Source: a virus. From it: DNA of 64,000 nucleotides. A program made the translations under genes and the position numbers. Under the pieces are notes generated by a model. That model searched no databases and was not told the origin of the DNA. It saw nothing but the letters and a program-made list of their open reading frames with translations. The stretch lies in IMG/VR virus record IMGVR_UViG_3300017971_000265, positions 13,933 to 77,932 of that record; one strand, 5' to 3'. Positions 13,037-37,610 of this stretch are shown here, in pieces (position 1 is the stretch's first letter; each line of letters starts with the position of its first letter).

Positions 13037-13070
13037 GAATGTGTGGTTTCATCTTTCGTTAGGAGGAGTA

Positions 13071-18023: not shown

Positions 18024-19508
18024 ATGGAAGCGAGAGATTATCTCAACGATGAGGCGCTTGCACAATCGGCCGGAACCGTTCTGGACGAGGATCTGAATGT
18101 GGCGCTTCAGGCAAAGTGGGGCGGATTGATGGAACAGGGCTGGGACTCGTGGACGAAGCGCTGCATGGCGCGGATGTTCGAGAACGAGATGGTCCACCTC
18201 AATCAGCTCAAACGAAGGTTTCTCACAGAGGCCACGCTGGCGCAAAACATCCCGGATCTGGTCAAATTCATCTTTCCCATCGTGCGGAGAGTATGGGCCA
18301 ACCTGATCGCTAACGGGCTGTTTTCGATTCAGCCGATGAACTCGCCAATTGGAGGCATCTTCTATTGGGAGTACAAGTACGGGACGTCAAAGGGAACTAT
18401 CACTGCTGGCGACAACATGATAGAGAACTTTGATCGTTACTACTCCTCGGAATATGTCGATGGCGAATCGATTGGAACTGGCACCGATACCTATTCTGGT
18501 ACGCTGGCTTGGAAGCCTGTGAAGCCTTATGGCATGGGCCAGGTGGGAATCGAGTTCGTTGGTACTACCGATGTCGGGGCTACTCTGCGCATCTATGATG
18601 CTGACGGAAGTGGTGATTTGTCAGGAGATGTCAGTGGTGCAAACACTATTACGTTTGCCACGGGTGCTTACAGCATCAAATTCACCGCATCTGTAAATAA
18701 TGTGGTTGCCAACTACTTCTACAACATGGAGGCTGAGGCGGACAACGTACCGCAGGTCAACGTGGACATCACCCTCGAAGCTATCAAGGCTTGGAGTCGG
18801 AAGCTGAAGATATTGTGGTCCAGCGAGGCTGCAGACGACATGAGGGCCGTGCTCAATATGGATATTGAGCCCGAGTTGACATCCGGTGTGGCAAGTGAGA
18901 TCGCGCTGGGTATCGACCGCGAGCTGATCATGGCGGCTTACGGTTCGGGAACAACCAACACAGACACGTTCGATGCAGCGGTGCCACCGGGACGAAACCA
19001 GGTGGATCACTTCCGCAACATCATGACGACCATCGAGAAGGTGTCGGGTGGGATCAACACGGCTACGCACAGAGGCCCTGGCAACTTCCTGGTTATAGGG
19101 CCGAGCGTACAGCCGATTTTTGGTGCGCTGGCCACGCACGGTGACCTGGTACGTGTCTATACGGACGTGCCGACAGGACCGGTAGGCCAGGGTGTGACGG
19201 GACGTCCCGCATTCCCATTGCCGCAGGCTCCGAGTGGATACGGTGTTTATCCGATGGGCTTCCTCCAGAACAAGTGGACGGTCATTGTGGACCCGTATTT
19301 CCCGAGTGGGAAGATTCTGGTCGGTCTGAAGGGGACGATGTTCACCGACTCCGGTTTGGTGTATGCCCCCTACGTGCCACTGGAAATGACGGCTGCGTTC
19401 CTCGATCCGGCAGACTTTTCGCTGCGGAAGGGTATGAGAACCAGGTATGCCAAGAAGCTGGTTAATTCCAATTTCTACGGCATTATCACGGTAACCAACC
19501 TTCCCTAA
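18024..19508 (+). CDS. Major capsid protein (T4 gp23-like)
   Basis: IQPMNSPIGGIF, SRKLKILWS, GLVYAPYVPL, GMRTRYA. Confidence 0.95.
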   Translation: MEARDYLNDEALAQSAGTVLDEDLNVALQAKWGGLMEQGWDSWTKRCMARMFENEMVHLNQLKRRFLTEATLAQNIPDLVKFIFPIVRRVWANLIANGLFSIQPMNSPIGGIFYWEYKYGTSKGTITAGDNMIENFDRYYSSEYVDGESIGTGTDTYSGTLAWKPVKPYGMGQVGIEFVGTTDVGATLRIYDADGSGDLSGDVSGANTITFATGAYSIKFTASVNNVVANYFYNMEAEADNVPQVNVDITLEAIKAWSRKLKILWSSEAADDMRAVLNMDIEPELTSGVASEIALGIDRELIMAAYGSGTTNTDTFDAAVPPGRNQVDHFRNIMTTIEKVSGGINTATHRGPGNFLVIGPSVQPIFGALATHGDLVRVYTDVPTGPVGQGVTGRPAFPLPQAPSGYGVYPMGFLQNKWTVIVDPYFPSGKILVGLKGTMFTDSGLVYAPYVPLEMTAAFLDPADFSLRKGMRTRYAKKLVNSNFYGIITVTNLP

Positions 19509-21294: not shown

Positions 21295-21870
21295 ATGCCC
21301 AAACTAGGAGATCTCGGACGGAACGTTGACATACTGAGGCAGATGCGTGATCGGCTAGTTGCTGAGGAGGGGAGAGCTAAGGAGCAGGAGGTTGAACAGG
21401 ATCGATGGGATAGTTTTTCCGAGGTAGCGTCCGAGATTATTGAGGCGTGTGACAATAGACGTCTGGAAGAGCTTGTTACGGCGGTTCGTAAGCTCAAGAA
21501 TCGGTTGCGCCGACCAGCGGTTAGGAAAGAATTGGCAAAGCTGGAAGCCGATGGAGGAAACGATAAGATTCCTGCCAAGAAAGATAAGCCAATTACTGGG
21601 CAGTGCAAATGCGCGGAATGCGGCAAGGTTATTGATGGGTCAAAAGAGCCCTGTGTTGAAGATGCCTTATGTACTGATTGTGCCTTGAAAAACAGAGTTG
21701 TTTCTAAGAAGGAACAGGACAAAAAGAAGAAGAAAAAGGGCGTGCCACCTACTCCAGGCATGGGATCTGAAGGAGGAGGAGCGTCAGGGGGCGAGGATGA
21801 GGGAGAGAGAGACGACGATGAGGAAAAAGAAAAGAAAGAGTCTCTGAGGAGAAGAAGCTATTCATTATGA
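21295..21870 (+). CDS. Hypothetical protein with a CxxC...CxxC zinc finger
   Basis: CAECG...LCTDC; ends ESLRRRSYSL. Confidence 0.65.
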   Translation: MPKLGDLGRNVDILRQMRDRLVAEEGRAKEQEVEQDRWDSFSEVASEIIEACDNRRLEELVTAVRKLKNRLRRPAVRKELAKLEADGGNDKIPAKKDKPITGQCKCAECGKVIDGSKEPCVEDALCTDCALKNRVVSKKEQDKKKKKKGVPPTPGMGSEGGGASGGEDEGERDDDEEKEKKESLRRRSYSL

Positions 21871-24530: not shown

Positions 24531-25481
24531 ATGCTTGGAAAATCCATAGAATTTTTGGAAGATATCATCTCGATATTGGGGGAACAACCCGTGGGAGATG
24601 AAAACGATGTGGATGCATTTGGCATGGATGCACATACTAGGAGAAGGTTACGGGTTGATCGTTTATTGCAACCTAGAGGGAAGAAAAAGCCGCGTAAGCC
24701 GATGCGTACCAAAATGCCGCATTCGTTGGCCAGAATTCCCCGGCTGGGGAATGAGGAGATTGTGAATTCATCACTGAGGAGACGAGGTTATCTAGCAGAG
24801 AGCGTCCGGGTTCTTAAGAAAGCTCCTCCCAAGACCGCTGTGGCAGATGTGTACGGGTTAAGATTCTCGTCGTGGGACGGGAAGCTGGCATTGGTGACGA
24901 CATCTGCATTAAGTGCTTTCAGCTCAGGCGAGCATATCAGTCAATGGTTTAATCCAGAGACATTAGCGCAGCGATATGTTGTACGGTTTGCTGTAGACAG
25001 CCGAGGGAAACCTATACCGGTGACGAATAGTAGTTGGATTGGGGCGCAGCCTTACCTTGCTGATGCGCATCTTCCTTACGAGAAGAACACATTTAAGCTT
25101 GGTAGCCGTGGATATGGCATGAGGGCCGAAGTTGAAGGATCTTTTTCAAAACCTCAAGAGTTTTGGGTAAAGAAATCGTTCAAGAATCTGGATGGTGCAC
25201 AGACCAACGTAGTGGAACACTATTTCCGCAAGCGCGGTTTTATTGACGTCTCTGATTTCAAACTCACGGTGCGGGATTGGCGCATTATGCTTGGCATGGG
25301 TTTTGACGAGATTCAGGAGAAACTGCATTACGAGAAGGCGAAGGAGGCTGATTATTTGGTTACGAGGATACTCGGACATTCTACTATCGATGATAGTTTG
25401 ATGAACAGAGTTTGGAAGGGCATCAAGGGCGTATACGCCTTGACACGGCAGGGTAAGATAAAATTCGCTGTAGAAAGGTGA
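24531..25481 (+). CDS. Hypothetical protein with internal in-frame start (24762) carrying a class I leader
   Basis: GAGGAG then GTG, NSSLRRRGYLAE. Confidence 0.65.
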   Translation: MLGKSIEFLEDIISILGEQPVGDENDVDAFGMDAHTRRRLRVDRLLQPRGKKKPRKPMRTKMPHSLARIPRLGNEEIVNSSLRRRGYLAESVRVLKKAPPKTAVADVYGLRFSSWDGKLALVTTSALSAFSSGEHISQWFNPETLAQRYVVRFAVDSRGKPIPVTNSSWIGAQPYLADAHLPYEKNTFKLGSRGYGMRAEVEGSFSKPQEFWVKKSFKNLDGAQTNVVEHYFRKRGFIDVSDFKLTVRDWRIMLGMGFDEIQEKLHYEKAKEADYLVTRILGHSTIDDSLMNRVWKGIKGVYALTRQGKIKFAVER

Positions 25482-25489
25482 ATCAAAAG

Positions 25490-25828
25490 ATGGCGCACAA
25501 AAAGCTGAGACATAGGCAATATCTGGGAGAGGGCACGACACCGTGGATATGGGCTTTTTCAAAACGTCCAGATGTTGAGTTTGCAATACAGATAGTTTCG
25601 GCTGATTCATTTCAGGTGCAAATAGGTATGGGGGGTGAGTGGTGGAACGGACGTCTAAGGCTTGGACGGAACATTCTCTATCATCGCAAGGGGAAAGTTG
25701 ATCCTGCCTACCGACCCGTAACAGCAGAGGTAAGTCATAGGAAAGACGGTATATATTTCTCAATTTCCGGTGGCTTCTATGGGGATCAGACTGCGAAGTT
25801 TACGATGAGGCTAGTTGCGAATACGTGA
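25490..25828 (+). CDS. Hypothetical protein, class I leader
   Basis: MAHKKLRHRQYLGE. Confidence 0.65.
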   Translation: MAHKKLRHRQYLGEGTTPWIWAFSKRPDVEFAIQIVSADSFQVQIGMGGEWWNGRLRLGRNILYHRKGKVDPAYRPVTAEVSHRKDGIYFSISGGFYGDQTAKFTMRLVANT

Positions 25829-26241
25829 TGGTTTCTTCTCTTACCAGTACTGTTGATCTTCTCCAAGATGCACGCAAGTTCATGACGCCTGGACGCGAGG
25901 GGCGTGGCAAGCATGATCCGGTTGGATATGTACTTGGTAAATTTTTTAACTCTACGCCAGAGTTCGATAAGTCGTTAGTTGAGAGACAGCGACGGAAGAA
26001 TGGTTGGACGCTGCGAGGAGCATGGCCAAGTACTGGTCGGAAAATATTCGATTGGGAATTTGATGTTTGGGGCGAGCGCGGGGGTGAAGTAGTTGTGAAA
26101 TTTGCGATGTGGAGTAATGAAGGATTGATTGATGGTCTGAGTTTTAGAACCAACGTAGGGACTGTGGATAGGCTTATTCCTAAGTTTTTGAGAAAATACT
26201 TCTATCCCATGAAGGCTATGGCAAAGGAGAGAGCGGCATGA
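25825..26241 (+). CDS. Hypothetical protein
   Basis: Overlapping start/stop codons with both neighbours. Confidence 0.6.
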   Translation: MMVSSLTSTVDLLQDARKFMTPGREGRGKHDPVGYVLGKFFNSTPEFDKSLVERQRRKNGWTLRGAWPSTGRKIFDWEFDVWGERGGEVVVKFAMWSNEGLIDGLSFRTNVGTVDRLIPKFLRKYFYPMKAMAKERAA

Positions 26242-26633
26242 ATCTTAGATGTCGCGGATATTTAGTGGAAAAGACGCTAAATGTTAAGCAGGCAATTCCC
26301 GATCAAGATTTAAGCGATAGGGAATTGGTACAAAGGATAAAAAGCTATAGGGTCGATAAGACTCGGGGGTGGGGTTTGTTTGTCAAGGCAAGAAATCTTC
26401 GACCGGGAATAGATGCGAAAGAATTTTATAAGATTTTTGATTCTGTAAATCCTGATCCTCATCACACGATAGTTTCGGTTAAGTTTGAGCCGACACATAT
26501 ATCGAAAGATACTCCAGGATTATCCATAATGGTTACCTCAAGAACGCCGCATTTGGTACGTCATATAATGAGCTATGGTGGAACTGGTGGCACGCCTGTA
26601 CGTGAGTTTGATCGGCAATGGAGAGCAATATGA
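26238..26633 (+). CDS. Hypothetical protein, class I leader
   Basis: MNLRCRGYLVE. Confidence 0.7.
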   Translation: MNLRCRGYLVEKTLNVKQAIPDQDLSDRELVQRIKSYRVDKTRGWGLFVKARNLRPGIDAKEFYKIFDSVNPDPHHTIVSVKFEPTHISKDTPGLSIMVTSRTPHLVRHIMSYGGTGGTPVREFDRQWRAI

Positions 26634-26863
26634 ATCTTAGACGTCGTGGATATTTACAGGAGTCGGTTGGGATTGTGAAAAAATCTCAGATTGATAGGAA
26701 CAAATCTTATACTGTTTGGGAGAAGCATCCCTATATGGATACGTGGATGATCGATAGATCTTACTATGGGATTTATTTCTATGGAGAAGGCGAGGCTTAT
26801 TTGAAATCAAAGAAACATATTGTGGTTCCCAGGGGAGTGGACCCAAATAGGGAGGACAAGTGA
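26630..26863 (+). CDS. Hypothetical protein, class I leader
   Basis: MNLRRRGYLQE; SD GGAG. Confidence 0.7.
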   Translation: MNLRRRGYLQESVGIVKKSQIDRNKSYTVWEKHPYMDTWMIDRSYYGIYFYGEGEAYLKSKKHIVVPRGVDPNREDK

Positions 26864-26864
26864 T

Positions 26865-27353
26865 ATGAGTCTTCGAGATGTAAATGAATTGCTTCGTGGC
26901 AGTGTTGCGCAGATCAGGGACATAGAAGAGGCAGCGCCAGCGCCCGGTGTGGTAGACTTGGAGAATCCGGTCTATCATATACGTCAGAAGGTGGCTAAGA
27001 TCAGTGTCCCGGTCTCACCAACAACTAGTATTGCTGCTGGACAGACAGGGGCGAAGTTGTTGAAACAGAGACTGACAGGTTGGACAAAGGCTGATCATAA
27101 AAAGGCTGTGGTTAAGTTGGAAAAAATGGCAAAGAGGGCCAAGGCTGACTATGCGCGTGCGCTCGATAGGGCGGCGCAGGAAACGTGGGGGCGAAAATGG
27201 AAGCCGACTGATTACAAGATCTCTTGCGTTGGTTCGGATGAATTTTCCGAGTCGATCAAGAAAAAACTCCGAGTGTTGTGTCGTAAGATGACAATTATTG
27301 GAGATGCGCTTGCGTCTCATAGGTATTTGGCAAAATATCTAAGGACAAAATGA
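26865..27353 (+). CDS. Hypothetical basic protein, class II leader
   Basis: SD GGAGG; MSLRDVNELL...DIEE/A. Confidence 0.7.
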   Translation: MSLRDVNELLRGSVAQIRDIEEAAPAPGVVDLENPVYHIRQKVAKISVPVSPTTSIAAGQTGAKLLKQRLTGWTKADHKKAVVKLEKMAKRAKADYARALDRAAQETWGRKWKPTDYKISCVGSDEFSESIKKKLRVLCRKMTIIGDALASHRYLAKYLRTK

Positions 27354-27835
27354 AGTTTACTCTTACAGAGAATCTGATCTTGCTTGAATTCCTCCTGGGG
27401 GAACTCTCAGGATCGGAGTATCTGGTTGAGAAAAAGATCTCTAAACTGACTCCTTACCAGAAGGCGCAAAGGGCAAGACGTCAAACAGTGGCGGCACATA
27501 CTCCTCGTCCGGCGAAACAGAGTGTGTTTTACAAACATGCTGTGCGGGCAATATTTCAGAAGCTTAGAAAAGGCGGGGATGGTTTCAAGGGGTCAGCTAG
27601 GGGAGGGCAGCTTATTGCTCAACATATGTTGAAAAAGCATGGATATGCAGCGGGGAGTCCTTCTGGCAACTTCAGTCTAACCAGCAAGGGTAGGAAGAGG
27701 AATTTGAAACATGTACGTGAGCCTGCTGGGGTACGGGCGAGAAAAGAGCGTGCCTACAACTACATTATGGGTATTCAGAAACGTGCCGCTCAGAGGCAGC
27801 AGCAGGTGAAGGCCAAGGCGGCTGGAGCTGGATAG
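27350..27835 (+). CDS. Hypothetical very basic protein with acidic/hydrophobic leader ending YLVE
   Basis: Sharp charge switch after YLVE. Confidence 0.7.
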   Translation: MKFTLTENLILLEFLLGELSGSEYLVEKKISKLTPYQKAQRARRQTVAAHTPRPAKQSVFYKHAVRAIFQKLRKGGDGFKGSARGGQLIAQHMLKKHGYAAGSPSGNFSLTSKGRKRNLKHVREPAGVRARKERAYNYIMGIQKRAAQRQQQVKAKAAGAG

Positions 27836-27843
27836 GAGACGTC

Positions 27844-28116
27844 ATGAATAGTTTGAGAAATCGCGGGTATTTGGAAGAGGGGCAGTATCAAGTGTCTATT
27901 GGTCCTGACGATGACCTGGAAGATAAGACTGGTGAGCTGATGAAAATGATCAGAGCAGCTATTCACGGTGGTATCAGGAGGGTATTGGCTCAGAATGGTA
28001 TGTCTCCTTCTGTGATCGGGAAGGTGGATAGATACCTTGATGCCAAAGAAGGTAAATTCATGGATGATTTGACTGATATTATGTTGAAAATGCGAGTTCC
28101 ACATAGGCTTGGGTAA
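27844..28116 (+). CDS. Hypothetical protein, class I leader
   Basis: MNSLRNRGYLEE. Confidence 0.7.
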   Translation: MNSLRNRGYLEEGQYQVSIGPDDDLEDKTGELMKMIRAAIHGGIRRVLAQNGMSPSVIGKVDRYLDAKEGKFMDDLTDIMLKMRVPHRLG

Positions 28117-28119
28117 ATA

Positions 28120-28149
28120 ATGGGTACACTGATAACTGATTGCAACCAA
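28120..28149 (+). pseudogene. Relic copy of the 5' end of the gp14-like gene
   Basis: 25/30 nt identical to 28449-28478 (MGTLITDCNQ vs MGTLINDCDQ). Confidence 0.75.
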
Positions 28150-28163
28150 ATAGGAGACGTCAA

Positions 28164-28439
28164 ATGTCGCTAAGAAATAGGTCTTATAGATATATCGATG
28201 AAGCCAAGATGCGGAAGTATGTTGGTGTTAGGGCCAAGGGTGTTGCATCTCTGCTTTTTTCTACTGCAAACGATGCCAAGGATGCTGCAGCTAAAATCAA
28301 TCGTTTCAAAAGGAGTTATGATGCATCTTATAGGAAGTCTGGTGACGTATGGAGAGTAGAGGTTGAGGGCATATCTATTGCCGAGCTTGTTTCATTGATT
28401 GACAAGCTGGATCTCAAACCGTTGACGCAATATCACTAG
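28164..28439 (+). CDS. Hypothetical protein, class I leader
   Basis: SD AGGAG; MSLRNRSYRYIDE/A. Confidence 0.7.
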   Translation: MSLRNRSYRYIDEAKMRKYVGVRAKGVASLLFSTANDAKDAAAKINRFKRSYDASYRKSGDVWRVEVEGISIAELVSLIDKLDLKPLTQYH

Positions 28440-28448
28440 GAAAGCAAC

Positions 28449-28928
28449 GTGGGCACACTAATAAATGATTGCGACCAATGTTTTTTCGACAGCGTGGCAC
28501 AAGAGGTGATCAAGCTGGCAGGAACTACTGCGATCATCTATCAGTTTGAAGAAGTCGAGAGTTCACGAGATGCGCTTTGGGATGAGGAGATTGAGACTGT
28601 TTACAAAAAGAATAGTGAGGGGAATCCAGGAATTGAATGTCCCGTCTTTTTTAAGGCTCCAGACAAGTCTGGTCTTACCGGAGAAGAGGGGTATAGGCTT
28701 GATAGGACGTCAGAGCTTCATGTGGCATGGCGAGACTTAGAAAGCAGAGGGCTGAGACGTTTGCGTCCTGGTGATATTGTGAAAGTTTGGGATATGTATT
28801 TTGATGTTATAGAGTCACACGCTACCGAGGGGTACATTAACGATACTCCGACAAAATCGACCATTGTTTTTGATGTGACGAGACGAACAAAGGGGCCACC
28901 TGAGAGTTTGTGGGAGCCTGGCGAATGA
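28449..28928 (+). CDS. Neck/head-closure protein (T4 gp14-like)
   Basis: AQEVIKLAG...IIY...DALWDE, RPGDIV; position downstream of the gp13-like gene. Confidence 0.65.
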   Translation: MGTLINDCDQCFFDSVAQEVIKLAGTTAIIYQFEEVESSRDALWDEEIETVYKKNSEGNPGIECPVFFKAPDKSGLTGEEGYRLDRTSELHVAWRDLESRGLRRLRPGDIVKVWDMYFDVIESHATEGYINDTPTKSTIVFDVTRRTKGPPESLWEPGE

Positions 28929-29374
28929 GTGAGGTAAGGCAAATCTTAGAGGATGTGTTTACGGAGAGGAAGAAGGCTACTATCCGTGGACGTGCCAAAG
29001 GATTGAGAAGGCCGAAGAGAGCTGAGAAACAGCATTATTTGGGGCGTGCCACAGGAATGAGAGGGCGTGATCTAAGCGGAGAGCCCGAGGCTCCGAAAGT
29101 GCCTGGAGCTAAGGAAGAGCCGTGGAAGAAAGAGAGAATTACTGAGTTTGAGAGTCCTGACGACTGGATGTTGTCGATGATTTTGGTTGCAATAATGCAT
29201 GCGAATCCTGGCATTAAACCGGAAGATGCGATTAAAATAGGGAAAGAATGGGTAAAAAAATTATATCTGCCAAGGACTGACTATCTTTGGAGAATGCAAA
29301 TGGTCAGACTGAACAGAACAGGTATCAGAGCTGAGGCATCAAAGATTCGGCGTGAATTGTTCAAGGTGATCTAG
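28925..29374 (+). CDS. Hypothetical protein, leader ending VFTE
   Basis: MSEVRQILEDVFTE then basic segment. Confidence 0.65.
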   Translation: MSEVRQILEDVFTERKKATIRGRAKGLRRPKRAEKQHYLGRATGMRGRDLSGEPEAPKVPGAKEEPWKKERITEFESPDDWMLSMILVAIMHANPGIKPEDAIKIGKEWVKKLYLPRTDYLWRMQMVRLNRTGIRAEASKIRRELFKVI

Positions 29375-29383
29375 GAGGTTGAG

Positions 29384-29665
29384 ATGGACATAATAGAAGC
29401 AAATGCTTTGCTAGATAAAGCAGTGGAAAGGCTCGCAGAGAAGATTTGGTCAGGAGAGGTTAAGACCAAGTGGCATCCTCCCGAGGGTTTTTTCGAGCAG
29501 AGTGCGAGCAAGATTGCTAGTGGTCTAAAATCAGCCTCGAAAGATCTGAAGCAAGCCATGGCCCGGTTGAATTTCTATATAAACAGAGCTGGGGAAAATC
29601 TCTCAGATGCAGATGTTAGACGTCTGGAGATGGCCAAGAAAAAACTCCAAAAGGCTTATGTATAG
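29384..29665 (+). CDS. DUF3175-like protein with class II leader
   Basis: EGFF...KIASGL...AMARLNFYINRAGENL...LEMAK resembles the DUF3175 signature as I recall it. Confidence 0.65.
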   Translation: MDIIEANALLDKAVERLAEKIWSGEVKTKWHPPEGFFEQSASKIASGLKSASKDLKQAMARLNFYINRAGENLSDADVRRLEMAKKKLQKAYV

Positions 29666-29673
29666 GAGGAGTC

Positions 29674-30285
29674 ATGAATCTACACAAAGTAAACGAATTG
29701 TTGGCTGAGACGATTTATGAGATCGGGGCTGGTGGTTTGAGGCCGATCAAAACGAGTGGTATTTTGATTCAACCAAATGTGACTTACCACATGGGTGCAT
29801 CTAGTTCTCCCCATAAAATCTTTGTGACCAAGGTTGATGATAGGATGATTTATTATCGATCTTATCCGTTTTATCGAGGACGAGAGGCCCGAATTGATCG
29901 AGGGATAGGAACGGATCTGATTCTTCAAGGCGTCAATACCTTCATGAAAAGTGGGTATGGTAAGTACCCTTGGGGAAAAGCGACGATCAGAAAATACAAA
30001 TCGTTACTTGCTGGCAAAAAGGTTAAGCCTGAAGATCTCAAGGATTACCAGAGAATAAAAGTCACGGTGGGGCCGGGCAAGGGGTATGAGGGCAAAGATT
30101 TGTGGCGTGAGGCTGAGTCGCATGGCTATGGTGTTGGGGGTAGGCGAGTCGAGGGAATGACGGATGGATTTCCGTGGATGAAAAATGATAATTCTAGTGT
30201 GTACGAGATTGAGATGGATAAGAAGAGTTTGCCGGGTCTAAAGAAAGATAAGCGTTTCAAAATTCTGAGCATAAAAGAAATGTAG
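29674..30285 (+). CDS. Hypothetical protein, class II leader
   Basis: MNLHKVNELLAETIYE. Confidence 0.7.
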   Translation: MNLHKVNELLAETIYEIGAGGLRPIKTSGILIQPNVTYHMGASSSPHKIFVTKVDDRMIYYRSYPFYRGREARIDRGIGTDLILQGVNTFMKSGYGKYPWGKATIRKYKSLLAGKKVKPEDLKDYQRIKVTVGPGKGYEGKDLWREAESHGYGVGGRRVEGMTDGFPWMKNDNSSVYEIEMDKKSLPGLKKDKRFKILSIKEM

Positions 30286-30297
30286 GGAGGTGACGTC

Positions 30298-30651
30298 GTG
30301 AAGCTTCGGAAAATAAATGAGTTATTGGGTGATACGGTTGAGAGCTTGACCGAATCGTTTCCTGCTTCATCTCCTGGTGAGGTAGCAATTCGCAAACTCA
30401 TAAGGGCTGTTCAGACAAAGACTCGTCTCCGATTTATGTATCGATCTGGTAAGATTGTTACGCTGAGCGGTGCAGTTGTGGCAACACTTGCTGCAACAGA
30501 GGACGGAAGATTCAATATAGAGGTTATCGAGTACGATACAAATTATCGATATGGATACAAGCCTAGAGGCAAAAAAACCTACAAGGAATTGTCGAAAGAA
30601 GCTGCGGTGAAAGTGCTTGCTAAGGCGTTAGAGGCGCATCCAGGAGTATAG
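30298..30651 (+). CDS. Hypothetical protein, class II leader
   Basis: MKLRKINELLGDTVESLTE. Confidence 0.7.
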   Translation: MKLRKINELLGDTVESLTESFPASSPGEVAIRKLIRAVQTKTRLRFMYRSGKIVTLSGAVVATLAATEDGRFNIEVIEYDTNYRYGYKPRGKKTYKELSKEAAVKVLAKALEAHPGV

Positions 30652-30662
30652 GAGTTGTCGTC

Positions 30663-31079
30663 ATGAGTGTTGAGTGGGTCAATGGAATGCTGAATGAGGC
30701 GATTGCAGAACTGGCTGAGGCGAGAAACAGGACTCTTAAGAAGGATTTGAAATTCAAGAGTGGCGATATTATTCCTAGAGGCACCCCGGTTGAGGTGGAG
30801 TTTTTGGGAGAAAGAGATCCCAGGGGATATAGTGTCGCGCTTTTGAAGGCGAATTGGAGAGGGTCAAATGGGCGAGATTATCAGAGGGAGCCTGTTCGAA
30901 TATCGATTGCCAAGCTACACAAATATGTGAGTGGTTTTGGTAAGCCACCAGGAATGGCCAAGCTGGAACGCATGGCCTCGGATGGAGTAGCAACGACTCC
31001 GACAGGAAAGCGCGTGGAGCCTGATGGATATGGACCAGATGGATCTCCTAGTTGGCTCATGGCGTTGGGATTTGTCTAA
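30663..31079 (+). CDS. Hypothetical protein, class II leader
   Basis: MSVEWVNGMLNEAIAELAE/A; C-terminal VEPDG...SWL..LG motif. Confidence 0.7.
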   Translation: MSVEWVNGMLNEAIAELAEARNRTLKKDLKFKSGDIIPRGTPVEVEFLGERDPRGYSVALLKANWRGSNGRDYQREPVRISIAKLHKYVSGFGKPPGMAKLERMASDGVATTPTGKRVEPDGYGPDGSPSWLMALGFV

Positions 31080-31089
31080 GAGGAGGGAG

Positions 31090-31494
31090 ATGTTAGATCC
31101 AGCAAGAATAGTAGAGGCGCAGACAAAGGGAGTCGTCTTTGTTTGCCGGATGTGTACCAGGTTTCATGAGGGGGCAGATCTTGGACTAAAAGATGAGGAG
31201 GGGGACGTGATCTGTACTGCCCATAAGACATGTGGAAGTCCCCTGTCTGGTAAGAGCTTTCAGGAATATGAGGGTCCGTTAAAAAATTACCTGGTAAATT
31301 ATTGCTATATTTGTGGCAAATATAGGCCGGAACATGCCTTAGAACCCAAAGTTTCAGGGGCCAAACGGATTGGTTGCTGTACCGACTGCTTGAACAATGT
31401 GGTAAAGAAGGTCACGCCCCGTCCCGAGGGTCGCAGAGTTGTGTTTACAACGGCAAAAAGGGCAGGGCCTGATCAGTTTGAGGTATTGCAATGA
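31090..31494 (+). CDS. Cys-rich zinc-binding hypothetical protein
   Basis: CRMC, C...C, CYIC, CCTDC; SD AGGAGG. Confidence 0.65.
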   Translation: MLDPARIVEAQTKGVVFVCRMCTRFHEGADLGLKDEEGDVICTAHKTCGSPLSGKSFQEYEGPLKNYLVNYCYICGKYRPEHALEPKVSGAKRIGCCTDCLNNVVKKVTPRPEGRRVVFTTAKRAGPDQFEVLQ

Positions 31495-31901
31495 CCACTT
31501 ATGTTACGAAACAGCTTCGTATCAAGGTTGCGGAACAGCAGAATGGCGAGAATCTTATCTTTCAGCGCGGAGATCGCGAGACTAAGTTTGAAGCCGTAGC
31601 TGCTCTTGACGAGGCAGGATTACAGCGATTCGTAATACCGCTTCCAGCTTCGGATAAGGATCTCATGGCGGGGCTAGAGATCACCACGGGACGTCTTCTC
31701 TATATCGAGACCGATACCGAGCTTTTGATCAAGTTGGCAAATGTGGCGGATACTGGTTTTGTAGTCAAGCCCATGATTGACGAGAGCGCATCAGAGAAAC
31801 CGGGCATGTTGTATTTGGAAGGGGAATTTTCTCATGTGTATGTTACTCCAACTGGGACAACGGGAGATGCCACTGTAATTTTCGGTGTAGTGGGAGCGTA
31901 G
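31491..31901 (+). CDS. Probable virion structural protein
   Basis: Beta-rich composition, operon position. Confidence 0.5.
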   Translation: MTTYVTKQLRIKVAEQQNGENLIFQRGDRETKFEAVAALDEAGLQRFVIPLPASDKDLMAGLEITTGRLLYIETDTELLIKLANVADTGFVVKPMIDESASEKPGMLYLEGEFSHVYVTPTGTTGDATVIFGVVGA

Positions 31902-31927
31902 GGATAAGACATATTGGGATTAAACAA

Positions 31928-32752
31928 ATGTTTAATATAAAACTCAAAGGCCCGTGGAAAGAGCTTGTGTCGATTCTCAATAGCTATGATAAGCGATTGA
32001 TATATGTGCGCAGGCGGGCTTGCAAAGACCTTGCAGAGGCGTTTCTGGAGCGGCTGAAAGAGAATGCTCCAGAGGGGGAAGAGTTTAATGCCTATATCAA
32101 ATCATTAGAAGTGGTCGAGTTGACCCATACGAGAGGAATTCCGGCGTTTGCGATTATTTCTAGGCGTAGCAAGGTTAAGCTGGGAACGCTTATGGGGAAC
32201 GAAGCAACTGCAAAAACGGTGGCATATATTTATCCGAGTCAGGGGGAAGTGACGTCTCCCGTTACCGAATTGATCTCCTCGGTAAATCCGTGGCCCCTCG
32301 ATTTGGTTCCGCATGGTCTTTCTGGAGATGATTTTATGTTGGTGCATAGGATTGTTACAGAGGGGGAGATGAAATGGGCTCGTCAACAAGTCTTGGAACT
32401 TATCTCAGAGAATCGTGGAGAATTTCGCAGGTACGGCATTCATTGGGGCAAGGCTGTAGAGCAAGATAGGCATTCCGATGAGTTAGAGTCCTTACCGGAT
32501 TTTATGTCTCTAGCGATAAGAGCTGAGTTTGGAATCAACGCGGATCACCAGCCTCATTGGCGACCAGCAATGAAATGGGTCATTGCCAATGCGGTGAAGA
32601 TTTTAGAAAAAGATAAGCTGATCAAGGGGGCTCTTCATGATTGGTTGTTCAAAGAGCATACCTTGGTAAAAAAGAGTGGCTTGCCTTCTGTATCAGCCAA
32701 GGACTTCTTGAAAGAGGCGGGTGCTTTTCAGAAAAAAGTGTTGAGTATGTAA
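31928..32752 (+). CDS. Putative neck/tail-completion protein
   Basis: Position; AEFG...PHWRPA motif typical of tail-completion proteins. Confidence 0.45.
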   Translation: MFNIKLKGPWKELVSILNSYDKRLIYVRRRACKDLAEAFLERLKENAPEGEEFNAYIKSLEVVELTHTRGIPAFAIISRRSKVKLGTLMGNEATAKTVAYIYPSQGEVTSPVTELISSVNPWPLDLVPHGLSGDDFMLVHRIVTEGEMKWARQQVLELISENRGEFRRYGIHWGKAVEQDRHSDELESLPDFMSLAIRAEFGINADHQPHWRPAMKWVIANAVKILEKDKLIKGALHDWLFKEHTLVKKSGLPSVSAKDFLKEAGAFQKKVLSM

Positions 32753-33495
32753 TGTCGATGATCAGGAACGAGCAGGTAGGAGACGTCTTTTTACGAGAGT
32801 TTGATCTCGGCATGGTCCTGACTCTTGGTGCTGTAGAAATTGGTCAGCGGTATTATTTGCCTACAGAGAAGGTTCCGGGAGTAAAGCCTCCGAAGTTTTC
32901 TGAGTTCTATGGTAATACCAGTGAGGTTGGGCAAACGATGCCTGGTATTCCCATTATTTATGCGAATCCTTCTACTGCTGTTCAGAGATATCTCTTGCCG
33001 TGCATCAGAATTCGGCGGGAAGATCCCAGTCCTGCCTTAGAGCGCTGGTTGAGTATCCACTATAAATATCGTAGACCTGCTCCGGGGGAGCCGGAAATTG
33101 ATGTTCAGTATCGTAAGAGGACATTGACTGGATATAAAAAATATGAACAGCAAGAGGGCGGCTATACCTATGATATTCCCTATACTATTACGGTAGAGGC
33201 AGCGGGCAAGGGTGCGCGTACAAAAGCGCATGTCATGCTGCTTCACTGTATGCGTATTTTTGGACCGCATGGAACAGTTCGAGTTGTCGACTCGTTGGGG
33301 AACGAACGTAAATATTGGGTATTTGGAGAAGGGCCGAGTGATCTTTCGGTTGCCACAGATATTAGGGATCGCACGATTATTTATGCTCTTTCTCTGCGTG
33401 TTCAGGCCGAACTGGACTTGCGCTTGCCCGTTACGAACCGTGCCATGACGTCAGAGCCCACAATAAATATGCATGACATGGAAGACTTGGGCTAG
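32752..33495 (+). CDS. Putative tail terminator / sheath stabiliser (gp15-like)
   Basis: LPCIRIRR...YDIPYTI; upstream of the sheath. Confidence 0.5.
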   Translation: MSMIRNEQVGDVFLREFDLGMVLTLGAVEIGQRYYLPTEKVPGVKPPKFSEFYGNTSEVGQTMPGIPIIYANPSTAVQRYLLPCIRIRREDPSPALERWLSIHYKYRRPAPGEPEIDVQYRKRTLTGYKKYEQQEGGYTYDIPYTITVEAAGKGARTKAHVMLLHCMRIFGPHGTVRVVDSLGNERKYWVFGEGPSDLSVATDIRDRTIIYALSLRVQAELDLRLPVTNRAMTSEPTINMHDMEDLG

Positions 33496-33506
33496 AGAGG
33501 TGAGAC

Positions 33507-33986
33507 ATGAAAAAGTATCGAAATGTGTCAAAAGGACCATTGCCGATAGATTTGGGATCGAAAGTTATCTCAGTTCCTGGCAAGGGTTTTTTTACTGTTG
33601 ATGAGAGTGATGCTAATTCGCCTGGTCTGTTGCGAAGACTGAGACGGAAGCAGGTAACTTTCATCGAAGATGTCGGGGTACGGGTTGAGGCTCTGCAAGT
33701 TCCAACTGTGCCCAAAGATGAGATTGTGACGAAGCCGAGTGAAAAACCAAAATCTCTTGAAAAAACGGATATTAAGCCATTTATGACGTCAATAGATGAA
33801 AAATCTGATGATGAAAAAGATGGCGATACATTGACAAGTACGTCTAAAATGGTGGAATCAAAAGACGATGGTGCCGTTTCTGACGACAAAGAGGAAGCGA
33901 AAAACGAACGGAACAAATCTGCCAAGCCTGCAAAAAAGAGTAGGCGAGCCAGAAAGAAGACCAAAGGCATCTCGGGATCTGAATAA
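33507..33986 (+). CDS. Hypothetical protein with low-complexity charged tail
   Basis: SD GAGGTG; directly before the sheath. Confidence 0.6.
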   Translation: MKKYRNVSKGPLPIDLGSKVISVPGKGFFTVDESDANSPGLLRRLRRKQVTFIEDVGVRVEALQVPTVPKDEIVTKPSEKPKSLEKTDIKPFMTSIDEKSDDEKDGDTLTSTSKMVESKDDGAVSDDKEEAKNERNKSAKPAKKSRRARKKTKGISGSE

Positions 33987-34021
33987 TATGGCCCGGAGCT
34001 TGAGAAGAGGAGGACAGTAAA

Positions 34022-36166
34022 ATGGGTGAATACCTGAGTCCTGGACTGTTTCTGATAGAGAGGTCTGCGAGCGCAGGGGCAATCGCTGGTGTTTCTACGT
34101 CTACCTATGCTACGGCAGGGTGGCTTAGGAAGGGGCCGGAGAATGAACCGCAGCTCGTGACCACTTTTGATAGGTTCGTAGAGATATTCGGAACGTATTG
34201 GAGGAATAGTAATATTCCGTTCATGATGGCTGCGTTTTTTCAAAATGAGGGAACGCGAGCATATGTGACACGTGTAGTTCCGAGTGATGCAATAGCGGCG
34301 ACGAATGCATCAGATCTGGATGATGCTGCTACTCCGGCATCTTTTTTTGGTCGTCCCCTAGCTTCCACTGTTGATCTGAGTACCGATAGTTATATCGCTG
34401 TAAAGATCAGCGGTGCTGCGGCTACAGAAATCGATTGTGCAGGTGCGGTTCCAGCGAGCACTACCCCCACAGAAATTGCATCGGCTATTGACGCGATAGC
34501 GGGCATTAGTTGTTCAGTAGGCACTGGCAATCGAATTGAAATTGTCACAGATGATACTGGTGCTACCGCGAGTCTTGAGTTCGAAGATGCAACAGCCAAT
34601 GATGCAACGGCTGTGATTCTCGGCTTGGACGTCTCAAACGATCAGACTTACCTGTACGAAGGTGAGGATGCATCGGACTGGACGCTTACCTCGCCTTGGA
34701 AAGGCACTTTTTACAATCAGGTTCGCATGTGTCTCTCGGGCAACAATGATTATGAGGGGGACAATGGAGGTTGGACCAGGTTTGATGTTTCGATTCAGAG
34801 CGAATCGGCAGTTGGCGAGGCCGATTGGCAGGTAGAGGAGACATATGACGAGGTGGTTCTTGATGACGATACGGATGAGCATTTCATTGAAGATGTCGTC
34901 AATGGTGAGACCAACTTCTCTCAAATCACGAAGGGATCTGATTACAACATTCCAAGATCGTTGAGAGCTACGAAGCGATTAGCTGAGTTCTTGGGTGAAG
35001 GTGATGCGGCGGAGACTTCCTTTTCCGGCACTATTCGCAATCCAGAGGTGAGGTTTGGAACGGTTTCGGTTCAGGCTGGTACTGTGACAGGTACGGACGA
35101 TAGCGACGGAGCTATCACGGGCACAGGGATTGTCAGCGGCACCATCAACTATACGACAGGAGCTTGGACGCTTGAATTTTCGGCTGCGCCAGCCGATGGG
35201 ACTCCGATCATGATGACATATTGGTCCGAGCCCGATGAGACCGAAGTCTGTGGTCAACTCTCGGGAGGAACAGACGGAACTGGGCCGTTGACACGTGGGG
35301 ACGTCACAGATCCCACTTTGCAAGCGAGCAAGACTGGTCTTTACTCCTTTGATGATCTCGATGAGATCTTGAACATTTCAATGCCAGATTTTGCAGGGAA
35401 TGTGACAGTAAGCAATGATCTCATTGCGTATGCTGAGACGAACAAGAACCGTTTCGCCATTTTGACCACCGAGGCGGGACTGGAGCCGACCGATGCGGTC
35501 AAGTTTGTGAGGAATACGGCTGCTTACAACACGAGTTATGGCGCTCTCTACTATCCCTGGGTTAAGATTTACGATCCGATAGCTGACGATGGTCGCAACC
35601 TCGATGTACCTCCCGATGGATTTATCGCGGGAGTGTTTGCACGGACAGATACCAACAGGAATGTTGGCAAGGCTCCTGCGGGCATTACCGATGGTAGACT
35701 CAATGGAGCGACTGGGCTAGAGCGTATTCTATCCAAGGGCGAGCGGGATATTTTGTATCCGGCACGTATCAATCCGTTAGTGTCTACCGTTCAGACTGGT
35801 CGAGCCGTGTGGGGAGCGAAAACTCTTAGTAAGGATGCGGAATGGATCAATGTTAACATTCGACGTCTCTTCATGTTCTGTGAGCAGAGCGTGTATAACA
35901 ATTCGTTCTGGGCCGTCTTTGAGAACAATGGGCCGGGCCTTTGGGCTCGAATCAAGGCGCAGGGAGATGGCTTTTTCCAAGGATTGCTCAGGGATGGGTA
36001 TCTGAAGGGAGCTACGCAGGCCGAGGCTTGGTTTATCAAGGTGGATGAGGAGAACAACCCGCAGGCCAGTATTGATGCTGGGTTGCTTACGGTGGACTAC
36101 TACATTGCTGGGAATAAACCAGCGGAATTTATCCGGTTGAGATTTCAGCAAAAGGTTGCTTCATAG
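34022..36166 (+). CDS. Contractile tail sheath protein
   Basis: YLSPGLFLIE, YYPWVKI, VPPDGFIAG, KAPAG, INPL, VWGAKTL, NIRRL, KPAEFI. Confidence 0.95.
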   Translation: MGEYLSPGLFLIERSASAGAIAGVSTSTYATAGWLRKGPENEPQLVTTFDRFVEIFGTYWRNSNIPFMMAAFFQNEGTRAYVTRVVPSDAIAATNASDLDDAATPASFFGRPLASTVDLSTDSYIAVKISGAAATEIDCAGAVPASTTPTEIASAIDAIAGISCSVGTGNRIEIVTDDTGATASLEFEDATANDATAVILGLDVSNDQTYLYEGEDASDWTLTSPWKGTFYNQVRMCLSGNNDYEGDNGGWTRFDVSIQSESAVGEADWQVEETYDEVVLDDDTDEHFIEDVVNGETNFSQITKGSDYNIPRSLRATKRLAEFLGEGDAAETSFSGTIRNPEVRFGTVSVQAGTVTGTDDSDGAITGTGIVSGTINYTTGAWTLEFSAAPADGTPIMMTYWSEPDETEVCGQLSGGTDGTGPLTRGDVTDPTLQASKTGLYSFDDLDEILNISMPDFAGNVTVSNDLIAYAETNKNRFAILTTEAGLEPTDAVKFVRNTAAYNTSYGALYYPWVKIYDPIADDGRNLDVPPDGFIAGVFARTDTNRNVGKAPAGITDGRLNGATGLERILSKGERDILYPARINPLVSTVQTGRAVWGAKTLSKDAEWINVNIRRLFMFCEQSVYNNSFWAVFENNGPGLWARIKAQGDGFFQGLLRDGYLKGATQAEAWFIKVDEENNPQASIDAGLLTVDYYIAGNKPAEFIRLRFQQKVAS

Positions 36167-36194
36167 TTTGTCGAGAACGTAAGGAGGATAGGTT

Positions 36195-36704
36195 ATGACG
36201 GTAAGGTCAGTAGCACAAGACGAGATTCAGAGTTTTCGCTTTCGAGTCTTTGAGATAGACGGTGGAGCAGGGGTGTTTGACAATGAAAATCCAGTTGCTG
36301 GATTTAATACGGTCACTACTCCAAACCTCACCTTTGAAACAGCGGAGCATCGAACGGGATCTCGCAAATATGCGCGGAAGTTTCTTGGACCCCCCACGTG
36401 GGAAGCTGGAACGATGACGCGAGGCATCTTGAGAGGTGATACGACGTTTTACGACTGGGCGATTGACAAATATTTGGGTCGCAAGCCGTTTCGTACCGAT
36501 CTGGAGATTCGAGTCTATGATCAGGAGGAGGACGGATCAGATGTGGCGAACGACGAGGCTGTTCGATCTGAGATTTGGAGACAGTGTATTCCATCGAGTG
36601 TCAAGCCGATGGGAGACCTCGATGCGTCGGCTACAGACGTCAACATGCAGGAAATTACGGTTGAGGTTGAAGAAGTAGAGTTGACAACCAAGCCTTCTGC
36701 CTAA
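36195..36704 (+). CDS. Tail tube protein (gp19 family)
   Basis: FRFRV...AGFN...EHRTG...TMTRG...LDASATDV. Confidence 0.85.
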   Translation: MTVRSVAQDEIQSFRFRVFEIDGGAGVFDNENPVAGFNTVTTPNLTFETAEHRTGSRKYARKFLGPPTWEAGTMTRGILRGDTTFYDWAIDKYLGRKPFRTDLEIRVYDQEEDGSDVANDEAVRSEIWRQCIPSSVKPMGDLDASATDVNMQEITVEVEEVELTTKPSA

Positions 36705-37412
36705 ATGTCTCGCAGTATTTTTAGCGATGAACTTCGAGTTCACCAATTCCATCTTATAGATGTAGATCCATCTTTTTCTTTCCCTCCCTTTGTATTAGTT
36801 CCCAATGTAGGTTTTTCTTCAATCACCATACCTGAGATTTCTATCGAGACAGAGGAGATCCAGGAGGGAACTAGTGATTTTGTTCATCACGTGTTAAAAA
36901 AAGCTTCTACCAATACTATTACTCTTTCGAGAGGATCGACTCCTTTTAATAGTGATTTTTGGCGATGGACCATGGCGTGTGTCAAGGGGACTAGCGCTTC
37001 AGGCAAAGAAAGCGTGGCCGGATTTTTAACTCAGGCGTCAACGCTTGGTTTGTTTGGCGATATCAAAATTCCTGGCAAGCGCAGGAATATGATCTTGTTA
37101 CATCTGACTGGGCTTTCTGCAGAGGGTCTTTTAGAGGCTATGGATTCAGCGAGGGGGCTGGATATGGCGAGGGGATTAGCGCTCCTCCCCTATGCTGGCT
37201 TGTCCGAAGCTTCAGGGTTGCAGTCGTCACTGACACAGGGGCTTTTAGATCTGGGGATTACTTCTATACCAGGTAAAGCCTATATGCTGTTTGGATGCTT
37301 GCCGACCCGGTATAAACCAGGTAGTGATTTTGATGCAGATACAACAGCCGTAAGTATTGAGGAGTTAGATTTGGCATATTCTCATTTTGAGCAATTTGGA
37401 GTGGGGGCATAG
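36705..37412 (+). CDS. Second tail-tube-like protein
   Basis: GFSSITIPEI...EG...ITLSRG...FDADTTAVSIEELDL. Confidence 0.75.
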   Translation: MSRSIFSDELRVHQFHLIDVDPSFSFPPFVLVPNVGFSSITIPEISIETEEIQEGTSDFVHHVLKKASTNTITLSRGSTPFNSDFWRWTMACVKGTSASGKESVAGFLTQASTLGLFGDIKIPGKRRNMILLHLTGLSAEGLLEAMDSARGLDMARGLALLPYAGLSEASGLQSSLTQGLLDLGITSIPGKAYMLFGCLPTRYKPGSDFDADTTAVSIEELDLAYSHFEQFGVGA

Positions 37413-37610
37413 ATGGGACTACGGAAAAGAGCATATCTCGCAGAAATCACCACATCGGGCGCTGTGCCCCCTCTTGTTAAGCCCTTTGCCGTCTACCGAA
37501 GAGCTTTTCCAACGACGCTGAGCGGCATTGTGGACAAGCTGACGCGATCTAAGAAACGGTTGGCCAAGAAATTCTCCAAAATGGGGCCTCCTCTTCCTCC
37601 CAAGGTTTGA
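37413..37610 (+). CDS. Small basic protein, class I leader
   Basis: MGLRKRAYLAE. Confidence 0.6.
   Translation: MGLRKRAYLAEITTSGAVPPLVKPFAVYRRAFPTTLSGIVDKLTRSKKRLAKKFSKMGPPLPPKV

Follow-up and report, generated by a model that had tools for sequence, protein, structure and literature searches.

The window analysed here, a stretch of 64,000 nucleotides (positions 13,933 to 77,932 of the IMG/VR record IMGVR_UViG_3300017971_000265), comes from an uncultured phage with a T4-type head (Pfam: Portal_T4, 8.2e-65; Gp23, 3.6e-60), in which about ten unrelated small basic proteins begin with the same 11-residue N-terminal tag, M-x-LRxRxYLxE, referred to below as the class I leader (Table 1). The record is about 46% complete, and the phage and all of the relatives used for comparison are uncultured metagenome contigs.

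Table 1 Class I leader genes, core copies away from the N-terminus and head-assembly features of the window (arrows mark predicted junctions).
Feature	Position in window	Strand	Details
Internal LRRRNFVSE copy	9179–9205	+	Within ORF 8594-9892, the gene preceding the portal
S77 prohead protease (T4 gp21 type)	15233–17995	+	Split by an intein after ELDHP↓C; Ser motif SSRG
LKRRFLTE of the gp23-type major capsid protein, residues 62-69	18207–18230	+	Gene 18024-19508; predicted junction E69↓A70
C-terminal core LRRRSYSL-stop, without cleavage Glu	21844–21867	+	Zn-ribbon head-module protein, ORF 21295-21870
Gene C	24762–25481	+	Leader MNSSLRRRGYLAE at 24762-24800, GTG start; basic 226-aa mature part
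Gene D	25490–25828	+	Leader MAHKKLRHRQYLGE at 25490-25531; 98-aa mature part, pI 9.9
Gene E	26238–26633	+	Leader MNLRCRGYLVE at 26238-26270; 120-aa mature part, pI 10.0
Gene F	26630–26863	+	Leader MNLRRRGYLQE at 26630-26662; 66-aa mature part; start overlaps gene E stop
Gene G	27844–28116	+	Leader MNSLRNRGYLEE at 27844-27879; 78-aa mature part
Gene H	28164–28439	+	Variant leader MSLRNRSYRYIDE at 28164-28202: LRNRSY core, two-residue spacer, I-D-E
Gene I	37413–37610	+	Leader MGLRKRAYLAE at 37413-37445; 54-aa mature part, pI 11.6

A six-frame scan found L-R-x-R-x-Y-L-x-E at window positions 24774, 25505, 26244, 26636, 27853 and 37419, and the variant LRNRSYRYIDE at 28170, and thus recovered all seven leaders of the original prediction. 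All seven lie on the + strand, with the leucine 2–5 codons past a start codon that is ATG in every case except gene C, and the spaced form of gene H is also seen in relatives (LRRRSYTELSE, LRQRRYSELNE). Two further N-terminal leaders, MRLRRRTYLAE (L009:11441) and MTLRRRRYVVE (L009:12139), lie upstream of the window in the same record, where N-terminal copies number nine in all. The eight training leaders scored 22.8–27.5 bits when scanned with a PSSM, a circular result since the same sequences were used for training, and 20 rounds of shuffled six-frame translation yielded 0–3 matches of at least 12 bits; a match at 57918 (14.5 bits), out of frame within a large ORF, was set aside as being at chance level. 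The exact pattern M-x-LRRRGYL-x-E had two matches in all of IMG/VR, both in relatives of this phage. A Tat signal peptide, which the RR-x-Y-L string resembles, was rejected as an identity, with x-E and then polar or charged residues following and no hydrophobic stretch seen. For gene C, whose orthologues (P0021, P0022 and L003:18145) have M-x-LR.R.YL.E from residue 1, an ATG at 24531 opens the same frame further upstream, and the motif may instead be a cut site within a 316-aa precursor of two modules; a protein atlas search with gene C gave no usable match.

Could such a repeated leader act as nucleic acid, DNA or RNA, in a cassette for translation initiation or recombination, or be the shared start of a simple paralogous family? 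The leaders at 26238 and 26630, which had been called nearly identical in DNA, do agree at 28 of 33 positions, and three tandem genes of the relative L011 share even the codons that precede the ATG, so the leader DNA may aid cassette exchange. As explanations of the leader itself, however, we give these readings next to no credence. Codons vary synonymously throughout (Leu CTG/CTT/TTG/CTA, Arg AGA/CGG/AGG/CGT/CGC/CGA, Glu GAG/GAA), and a GGAG-type ribosome-binding site is the sole feature common to the upstream DNA of the leader genes; selection on the leader thus acts at the level of the peptide and not of the DNA, which rules out a DNA repeat or regulatory element, and the motif occurs inside and at the C-terminus of proteins as well. 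Paralogy is ruled out by the dissimilarity of the mature parts, in line with the proposal that the carriers are unrelated and alike only as far as the Glu: when the sequences beyond the Glu were compared with one another by all-against-all BLASTP, no pair fell below E 0.1, column identity there drops to about 0.05–0.13, and the 31 tagged proteins of the phage and of relatives with a 71–78% identical capsid protein (50–289 aa after the Glu, mostly pI 9–12) form 24 unrelated clusters. No match in Pfam or PHROGs was obtained for the tagged proteins, save that M90 matched L009:11441 at its HExxH, below the threshold.

Compositionally, the end of the leader fits the gp21 cleavage rule L/I-x-E. In the column-identity set, P9, P8, P6, P4 and P1 were fixed by the scan pattern, and among the free positions identity was 0.61 at P3, 0.25 at P7, 0.20 at P5 and 0.09 at P2. 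P1 was Glu in 27 of 27 leaders, as the search pattern demanded, P3, which was free in the search, was Leu in 21 of 27 (the remainder V/I/M/F), and P1' was G, S, A or T in 17 of 27. An enzyme of the matching type is encoded in the head module, where an S77 protease is recognised by Pfam (PF03420, Peptidase_S77, 36.7 bits against a cut-off of 27) and PHROGs (PHROG 207, 8.6e-28) and aligns to PDB 5JBL in two pieces, residues 45-119 and 512-586, which contain the His and Ser motifs. The relatives have an uninterrupted copy, and this prohead protease is the presumed leader-removing enzyme, with splicing of the intein assumed. The two ORFs between portal and protease (13041-13973 and 13986-15233) had no significant Pfam or PHROG match, and these two collections identified no scaffold protein of the T4 gp22, gp67 or gp68 type in the record.

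Removal by a head protease can be set against enzymatic modification, in which the leader would be a recognition tag for a modifying enzyme in the manner of RiPP leaders. A short N-terminal sequence common to unrelated small proteins is what such a tag would look like, but Pfam searches of the neighbouring genes turned up no modifying enzyme, Radical_SAM (PF04055) was absent from the record and from an 86%-complete relative (both incomplete; controls positive), and the S77 protease was the only enzyme common to all leader-bearing lineages tested. We therefore regard a modification tag as very improbable. The profile scan of genome and relatives that had been proposed for the leader placed it in the near clade only: the 86%-complete relative had 12 matches at E<=1 (about nine of them strong), two relative fragments had six and four, and a more distant relative had none.

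The leader also has a counterpart in the shell itself. The predicted junction of the major capsid protein, LKRRFLTE↓A, resembles it, basic residues included, and its last four residues are identical to those of T4 gp23 (FLTE65↓AEIGG, compared with FLTE69↓A here). Six of eight relatives keep the junction, in which a position that is mostly hydrophobic precedes K, x, [RKQ], x, L, x and E↓[AS]T; those of L007 and L008 deviate. Such a resemblance fits a propeptide that serves cleavage only, the nine residues being no more than an extended prohead protease site, which might for example keep cargo inactive until maturation while entry into the head followed another route, and the Glu and P3 Leu do obey the gp21 rule. 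We consider this unlikely, if the least unlikely of the alternatives weighed, given how the basic core LRxRxY and the L-x-E come apart. Related copies proposed for ORFs 8594 and 21295 are indeed present, as the core. ORF 21295 ends SLRRRSYSL-stop, without a Glu, and its orthologues end LR.R.Y plus 0–3 residues in five further relative contigs (one orthologue, L008/L025, has a divergent end). Within ORF 8594 the copy reads SLRRRNFVSE, and the L003 orthologue retains SLRRRRF, with RVD where x-x-E would stand; an Asp at P1 in T4 prevents cutting and leaves targeting intact (PMC9026906). A spacer can part the core from the L-x-E, as in gene H, and the equivalent T4 10-mer suffices for targeting (PMC9026906). 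Conversely, the linkers of a cleavable polyprotein (EDVELDE↓A/G) and the class II leaders end in L-x-E within very different acidic or leucine-rich contexts, and since the linkers have only L-x-E and a small P1' in common with the class I leader, the basic core would seem dispensable for cutting as such. This suggests a tag of two putative parts, the core LRxRxY, also found without a cleavage site, and the L-x-E.

The HExxH cargo family of L009:11441 comprises >1,000 representative clusters, and among 124 full-length representatives a hydrophobic-x-Glu lies at most 14 residues ahead of the conserved domain in 110, against a roughly estimated chance rate of about 25%. L or I occupies P3 in 92, and 14 have a class I leader. 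Class I leaders occur on this cargo in the near clade, and quite different leaders, acidic and leucine-rich and still ending in L/I-x-E, occupy the same E↓A junction elsewhere. Such leader exchange shows the putative tag to go with the lineage of the phage rather than with the cargo. The AlphaFold model of L009:11441 predicts a loosely appended tag: pLDDT is <50 for residues 1-10 and about 90 on average over the remainder. This confident model had no fold match in Foldseek (best E 0.2), and in VIA-align the best Z was 4.7, while PprI/IrrE and CapP, which are HExxH proteins, gave weak rows; T4 Inh was considered as a homologue and dropped, its sequence having no HExxH. In a tblastn search of 50,697 phage records with two family members, the only match was to a metagenomic huge phage that lacks annotation, and no homologue was found in cultured phage records. 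The acidic leaders elsewhere on HExxH cargo also bear on whether the tag might be an uncleaved arginine-rich interaction peptide, binding nucleic acid or a host or phage factor without relation to the capsid. It is basic, short and N-terminal, as are the Arg-rich N-peptides of lambdoid N proteins, yet this would leave the invariant Tyr, the terminal Glu, the small P1' and the capsid-junction match unexplained, and we judge it quite improbable.

Among known systems, the closest in working is the capsid targeting sequence (CTS) of T4, MKTYQEFIAE, which is borne by the internal proteins IPII and IPIII (IPI has a similar one) and removed by gp21 (Mullaney and Black 1996; PMC9026906, PMC3012670, PMC5694885), with residues 4 and 7 serving targeting and 8 and 10 processing (PMC9026906). 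In both phages a 10–11-residue N-terminal tag is found on unrelated small basic proteins, with an aromatic-aliphatic-x-Glu followed by a small residue (Y-L-x-E here; F-I-A-E in T4, where IPII and IPIII read MKTYQEFIAE↓A), both have an S77 gp21-type protease, a gp20-type portal and a gp23-type capsid protein, and in both the cargo genes vary among relatives. The first seven residues, however, are unrelated, being basic here (M-x-L-R-x-R-x) and mixed in T4 (M-K-T-Y-Q-E); about ten genes are tagged per partial genome, compared with three IPs and Alt in T4; and the core occurs here at internal and C-terminal positions without a cut site. Also unlike T4, a second putative leader class and a polyprotein predicted to be cleavable coexist with the class I leader, and the class II leaders resemble the start of T4 gp24 (MAKINELLRE↓S). 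In T4 the IP tag shares with the gp23 junction only the aromatic-aliphatic-x-Glu, whereas here the basic residues are shared as well. The leader thus appears to resemble the CTS in working without belonging to the same sequence family, the last four positions alone agreeing in kind, and we take it to be a novel form of T4-type capsid targeting sequence.

Two other systems offer looser parallels. In the giant phages phiKZ and SPN3US, a related prohead protease cuts off propeptides that are believed to direct inner head proteins to their place, and conserved N-termini have been seen on diverged paralogues (PMC5694885, PMC7411985). Their cut rule is, by contrast, S/A/G-x-E or A-x-E, most propeptides exceed 100 residues, and diverged paralogues, gp53/gp54 for example, are among the proteins processed. 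Encapsulin cargo-loading peptides are alike in concept, a short terminal peptide loading unrelated cargo into an HK97-fold shell, and are usable uncut at a protein terminus, like the C-terminal LRxRxY copy (PMC8346489); they differ in sequence and involve neither a protease step nor a DNA-filled capsid, so that the comparison is conceptual and carries no claim of homology.

Thus, we posit that the class I leader is probably a two-part portable propeptide, fitted to the T4-type head assembly of this clade, that loads ejected cargo; capsid loading followed by removal of the leader, as with the T4 internal proteins, would be the most likely course. The core L-R-x-R-x-Y would act as a short docking motif onto the assembling prohead, whether on the scaffold core or on the shell's inner face, and the adjoining (Y)-L-x-E as the site cut by the S77 prohead protease. 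Tagged proteins would be produced late, alongside the structural genes, co-assembled into the prohead and cleaved after the Glu, and the mature cargo, small and mostly basic, would remain inside the head as internal proteins and enter the host with the DNA, like IPI-III and Alt of T4. The tag looks as if copied from the propeptide junction of the capsid protein itself, and a core without the Glu, as at the C-terminus of ORF 21295, could serve as a permanent anchor. Docking, cutting, packaging and ejection are all steps that we infer. The original prediction, a portable capsid-targeting sequence of about 11 residues, comparable in length to that of T4, is supported: all of the computational tests that it suggested favoured it, and the head proteins that a T4 analogy calls for are present. 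The reading is refined to a two-part tag for which targeting and cutting are proposed.

A bolder version, which we offer tentatively and think possible rather than probable, is that LRxRxY is a self-contained docking peptide for one prohead receptor, copied from the capsid propeptide junction and active at N-terminal, internal or C-terminal positions. A protein that bears it with L-x-E attached would then be cargo for release, and one that bears the core alone would stay fixed in the head for good. The class II leader and the polyprotein linkers would be further loading routes that run in parallel, and each lineage would re-tag a shared cargo pool, the HExxH family being one example, for its own head. 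If this is true, the tag and its receptor would act as a code of compatibility, specific to each lineage, for the effectors that phages eject, and the tag would lend itself directly to loading proteins into the capsids of non-model phages.

Functionally, capsid-borne proteins act ahead of any phage gene expression, and those of T4 include an inhibitor of a host restriction enzyme; to our knowledge, almost nothing is known of packaged proteins and their selection beyond T4 and the giant phiKZ-like phages. A short recognisable tag would mark about ten packaging candidates per partial genome in an uncultured clade, and because it follows the phage lineage and not the cargo, packaged effectors could become predictable from sequence. 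The tag suggests that a docking part and a cutting part are separable, and it would offer a second, unrelated targeting peptide for engineered protein delivery via phage heads.

One tagged gene has an unusual setting. Gene I lies directly 3' of a tail-tube-like gene, and a place in the tail module is odd for head cargo and counts against a packaging reading; its orthologues in L011, L013 and L014 occupy the same location and have the leader.

The source contig, a linear viral sequence of 77,932 bp with every gene on one strand, is ~46% complete (CheckV), and the window forms its right-hand 64 kb. Seven class I leaders (N-terminal M-x-LRxRxYLxE) had been claimed, and a six-frame scan recovered all seven, with the leader Leu two to five codons past the start codon in each and a GGAG mostly 4–8 nt 5′ of the start. 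Four additional motif copies occur in the same record, two N-terminal, one internal and one C-terminal, the last two being the related copies already proposed for the ORFs at 8594 and 21295, both now located by sequence. A ninth pattern match, MRRRGYIGE at 57918-57944 in a 44-codon frame, was counted as chance because it lies out of frame within an 810-aa ORF (56618-59050) and scores inside the shuffled-control range. Several GACGTC sites stem from leader codons AGA-CGT-CGx (Arg-Arg) or from GGAGACGTC directly 5′ of the ATG. Separately, 5′ of the window (L009:3944-10386) the record encodes two N6/N4 DNA methylases, a Mom-like protein and a nucleoside 2-deoxyribosyltransferase-like protein, and the phage probably modifies its DNA.

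Leaders and head genes (plain positions, window; L009, full record in its own coordinates)
Feature	Position	Basis or detail
First large ORF, with intein	470-3586	Intein_splicing and LAGLIDADG
1,661-aa polyprotein	3598-8583	
T4-type portal with intein	10179-12926	Portal_T4, 8.2e-65
920-aa protein with S77 prohead-protease domain and intein	15233-17995	profile match
L-R-x-R-x-Y-L-x-E	24774, 25505, 26244, 26636, 27853, 37419	six-frame scan
Spaced variant LRNRSY-RY-IDE	28170	six-frame scan
MRLRRRTYLAE	L009:11441, just 5′ of window	N-terminal, 233-aa protein with HExxH
MTLRRRRYVVE	L009:12139, just 5′ of window	N-terminal, 73-aa protein
SLRRRNFVSE	9179-9205	internal in ORF 8594
SLRRRSYSL-stop	21844-21867	C-terminal on ORF 21295
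Class II leaders	26865, 29674, 30298, 30663, 29384, 23849; L009:10444	
GACGTC sites at leaders	26247-26255, 26639-26647, 27835-27843, 28152-28160; L009:11450	

The Leu, Arg, Tyr and Glu codons of the leader vary synonymously from copy to copy and the DNA 5′ of the start codon is not conserved among copies, which together directly contradict a DNA-level element. Paralogy is contradicted just as directly, since the parts after the Glu are without similarity in any pair: the original observation that similarity ends at the Glu was borne out, with no similar pair beyond it (best E 0.17, nine-sequence database) and column identity there at background level. The 31 tagged proteins collected from this phage and its relatives form 24 clusters without detectable similarity to one another, and only genes C (24762) and I (37413) have orthologues across genomes. 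Gene I, whose leader three relatives conserve, is part of the tail module, a weak point for a head-cargo reading. Structurally, the AlphaFold model of the HExxH protein has a mean pLDDT of 89.8, with residues 1–10 below 50 and the fold beginning right past the Glu.

The window encodes a gp23-type major capsid protein (3.6e-60) together with portal and protease. The protease domain aligns to the T4 gp21 structure as two pieces (residues 45-119 and 512-586), the split after ELDHP|C being an intein insertion, with the Ser motif SSRG retained; the S77 gene is uninterrupted in relatives. Inteins occupy three essential packaging/head genes, portal and protease each being split in two by an insert, and the two ORFs between these last two carry no recognisable scaffold domain. 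The capsid-targeting principle in T4 has been known since 1996. T4 gp21 cleaves after Glu in L/I-x-E, and the 10-residue capsid targeting sequence alone suffices for loading foreign proteins (PMC9026906; also PMC3012670, PMC5694885); its residues 4 and 7 act in targeting and 8 and 10 in processing, and Asp at position 10 blocks cutting with targeting retained (PMC9026906).

In the T4 record, IPIII and IPII start MKTYQEFIAE|A, gp24 starts MAKINELLRE|S, and gp23 reads ...GSFLTE65|AEIGG. The capsid protein of our phage reads ...QLKRRFLTE69|ATLAQ at its predicted junction, with homology to mature gp23 beginning 12 residues further on, and eight relatives have I-K-N-Q-Y-L-R-E|ST, L-K-Q-K-Y-L-S-E|ST, M-K-R-R-A-L-T-E|ST and similar at the same site. 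The class I leader therefore has P1 Glu, P3 Leu, an aromatic/hydrophobic P4 and basic residues farther upstream in common with the predicted capsid junction; its overlap with the T4 tag is aromatic-aliphatic-x-Glu, and the parts after the Glu (50-289 aa, mostly pI 9-12) resemble T4 internal proteins. New here is a basic Arg/Tyr tag of its own kind, a copy of the predicted capsid junction. Class II, the second leader type of the same phage (MSLRDVNELL.., MNLHKVNELLAE, MKLRKINELLGD, MTLSEVNSILE), closely resembles the gp24 propeptide. Evolutionarily, class I may have been added within this clade to an ancestral T4-type tag represented by class II.

Likeness to the capsid junction is also accounted for by the main rival, a propeptide that serves cleavage only, which leaves copies of the LRxRxY core without the Glu unexplained. 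The ORF 21295 protein (21295-21870), a conserved Zn-ribbon protein encoded between the capsid and adaptor genes, combines a CxC...CxxC zinc ribbon and a Lys-rich, acidic tail with a C-terminal core that has no cut site (LRRRSYSL); its orthologues in five relative contigs end in LRQRGYLR, LRRRGYIQG, LRSRRY (two contigs) and LRRRRY, and in one further contig the end is divergent. Likewise, the ORF 8594 orthologue in a relative (L003) keeps SLRRRRF with RVD in place of the expected Glu, and gene H (28164) and two relatives have a two-residue spacer between core and L/I-x-E. Conversely, the polyprotein contains at least eight exact [ED][ED]V[ED]L[ED]E linkers (EDVELDE-type), each followed by A/G, that share P3 Leu and P1 Glu with the leaders, and class II leaders terminate in L-x-E within quite different contexts. 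From these Glu-less cores, spaced forms, linkers and class II contexts we infer that the protease would require L-x-E plus a small P1′ residue, with LRxRxY serving another role; most simply, LRxRxY would dock the protein in the prohead. Also new are the tag's build from two parts, seemingly independent of position, and a C-terminal copy, putatively uncleavable, carried by a conserved head protein.

HExxH homologues at 49–57% identity carry MxLRRRxYLxE|ATYERD (one fragment lacks the N-terminus), and those at 35–48% carry MRELLERLEE|AT, MRGILERIESLNE|AT and similar at the same E|A junction, which hardly varies. The family comprises 1,022 clusters at E≤1e-3 (profile search, 1.84 billion representatives), some members being embedded within proteins or polyproteins of 700–1,400 aa. 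Among 124 full-length representatives, whose leaders are mostly 8–13 residues, hydrophobic-x-Glu lies ≤14 residues ahead of the conserved domain in 110, against a roughly estimated chance rate of ~25%; Leu occupies P3 in 71 cases and Ile in 21, and 56 have Ala at P1′. Class I leaders occur in 14 of the 124 and MIKLKDLILE-, MRLKRYIKE- or MKFKEFLTE-type leaders in others, and the class I motif is absent from 20-kb stretches around distant homologues. A conserved cargo with a tag that tracks lineage is as expected if tags are matched to the head machinery of each phage; it offers clear natural evidence, also new, that one cargo has exchanged its tag. An uncleaved Arg-rich interaction peptide would explain neither this exchange for acidic leaders nor the invariant Tyr and Glu. 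Functionally, H117, E118, H121 and D124 are invariant in the family (L009:11441-12142), for which neither a Pfam or PHROG model nor a solved-fold match was found; the protein may be a packaged metallopeptidase.

IMG/VR relatives (capsid protein 71–78% and sheath 62–71% identical) share this leader, which invariably lies on the coding strand and is nearly always N-terminal. Scanning them with a profile built from 22 leaders, as had been proposed, gave 12 matches at E≤1 (~9 strong) in a 142-kb, 86%-complete relative, 6 and 4 in two fragments, and 0 in a more distant 105-kb relative, and an exact M-x-LRRRGYL-x-E scan of all IMG/VR hit only two contigs, both of this clade. A tag for a modifying enzyme, such as a radical-SAM one, would find no partner here: no modifying enzyme was found among neighbour genes, and the Radical_SAM domain is absent from both the ~46%-complete record and the 86%-complete relative.

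Orthologues of gene C have the leader at residue 1, so that gene C would either start at the GTG at 24762 or make up the second of two modules in a 316-aa precursor. The frame (24531-25481) is open for 77 codons ahead of the class I motif, with a class II-like beginning, MLGKSIEFLEDIISILGE, then a very basic stretch, and it may be a two-module mini-polyprotein rather than a GTG-started gene. A 301-aa ORF of a relative (L003:16822-17727) has class I leaders at residues 1 and 166 in the same frame, explained either by fusion of two cargo modules or by a start site that was missed.
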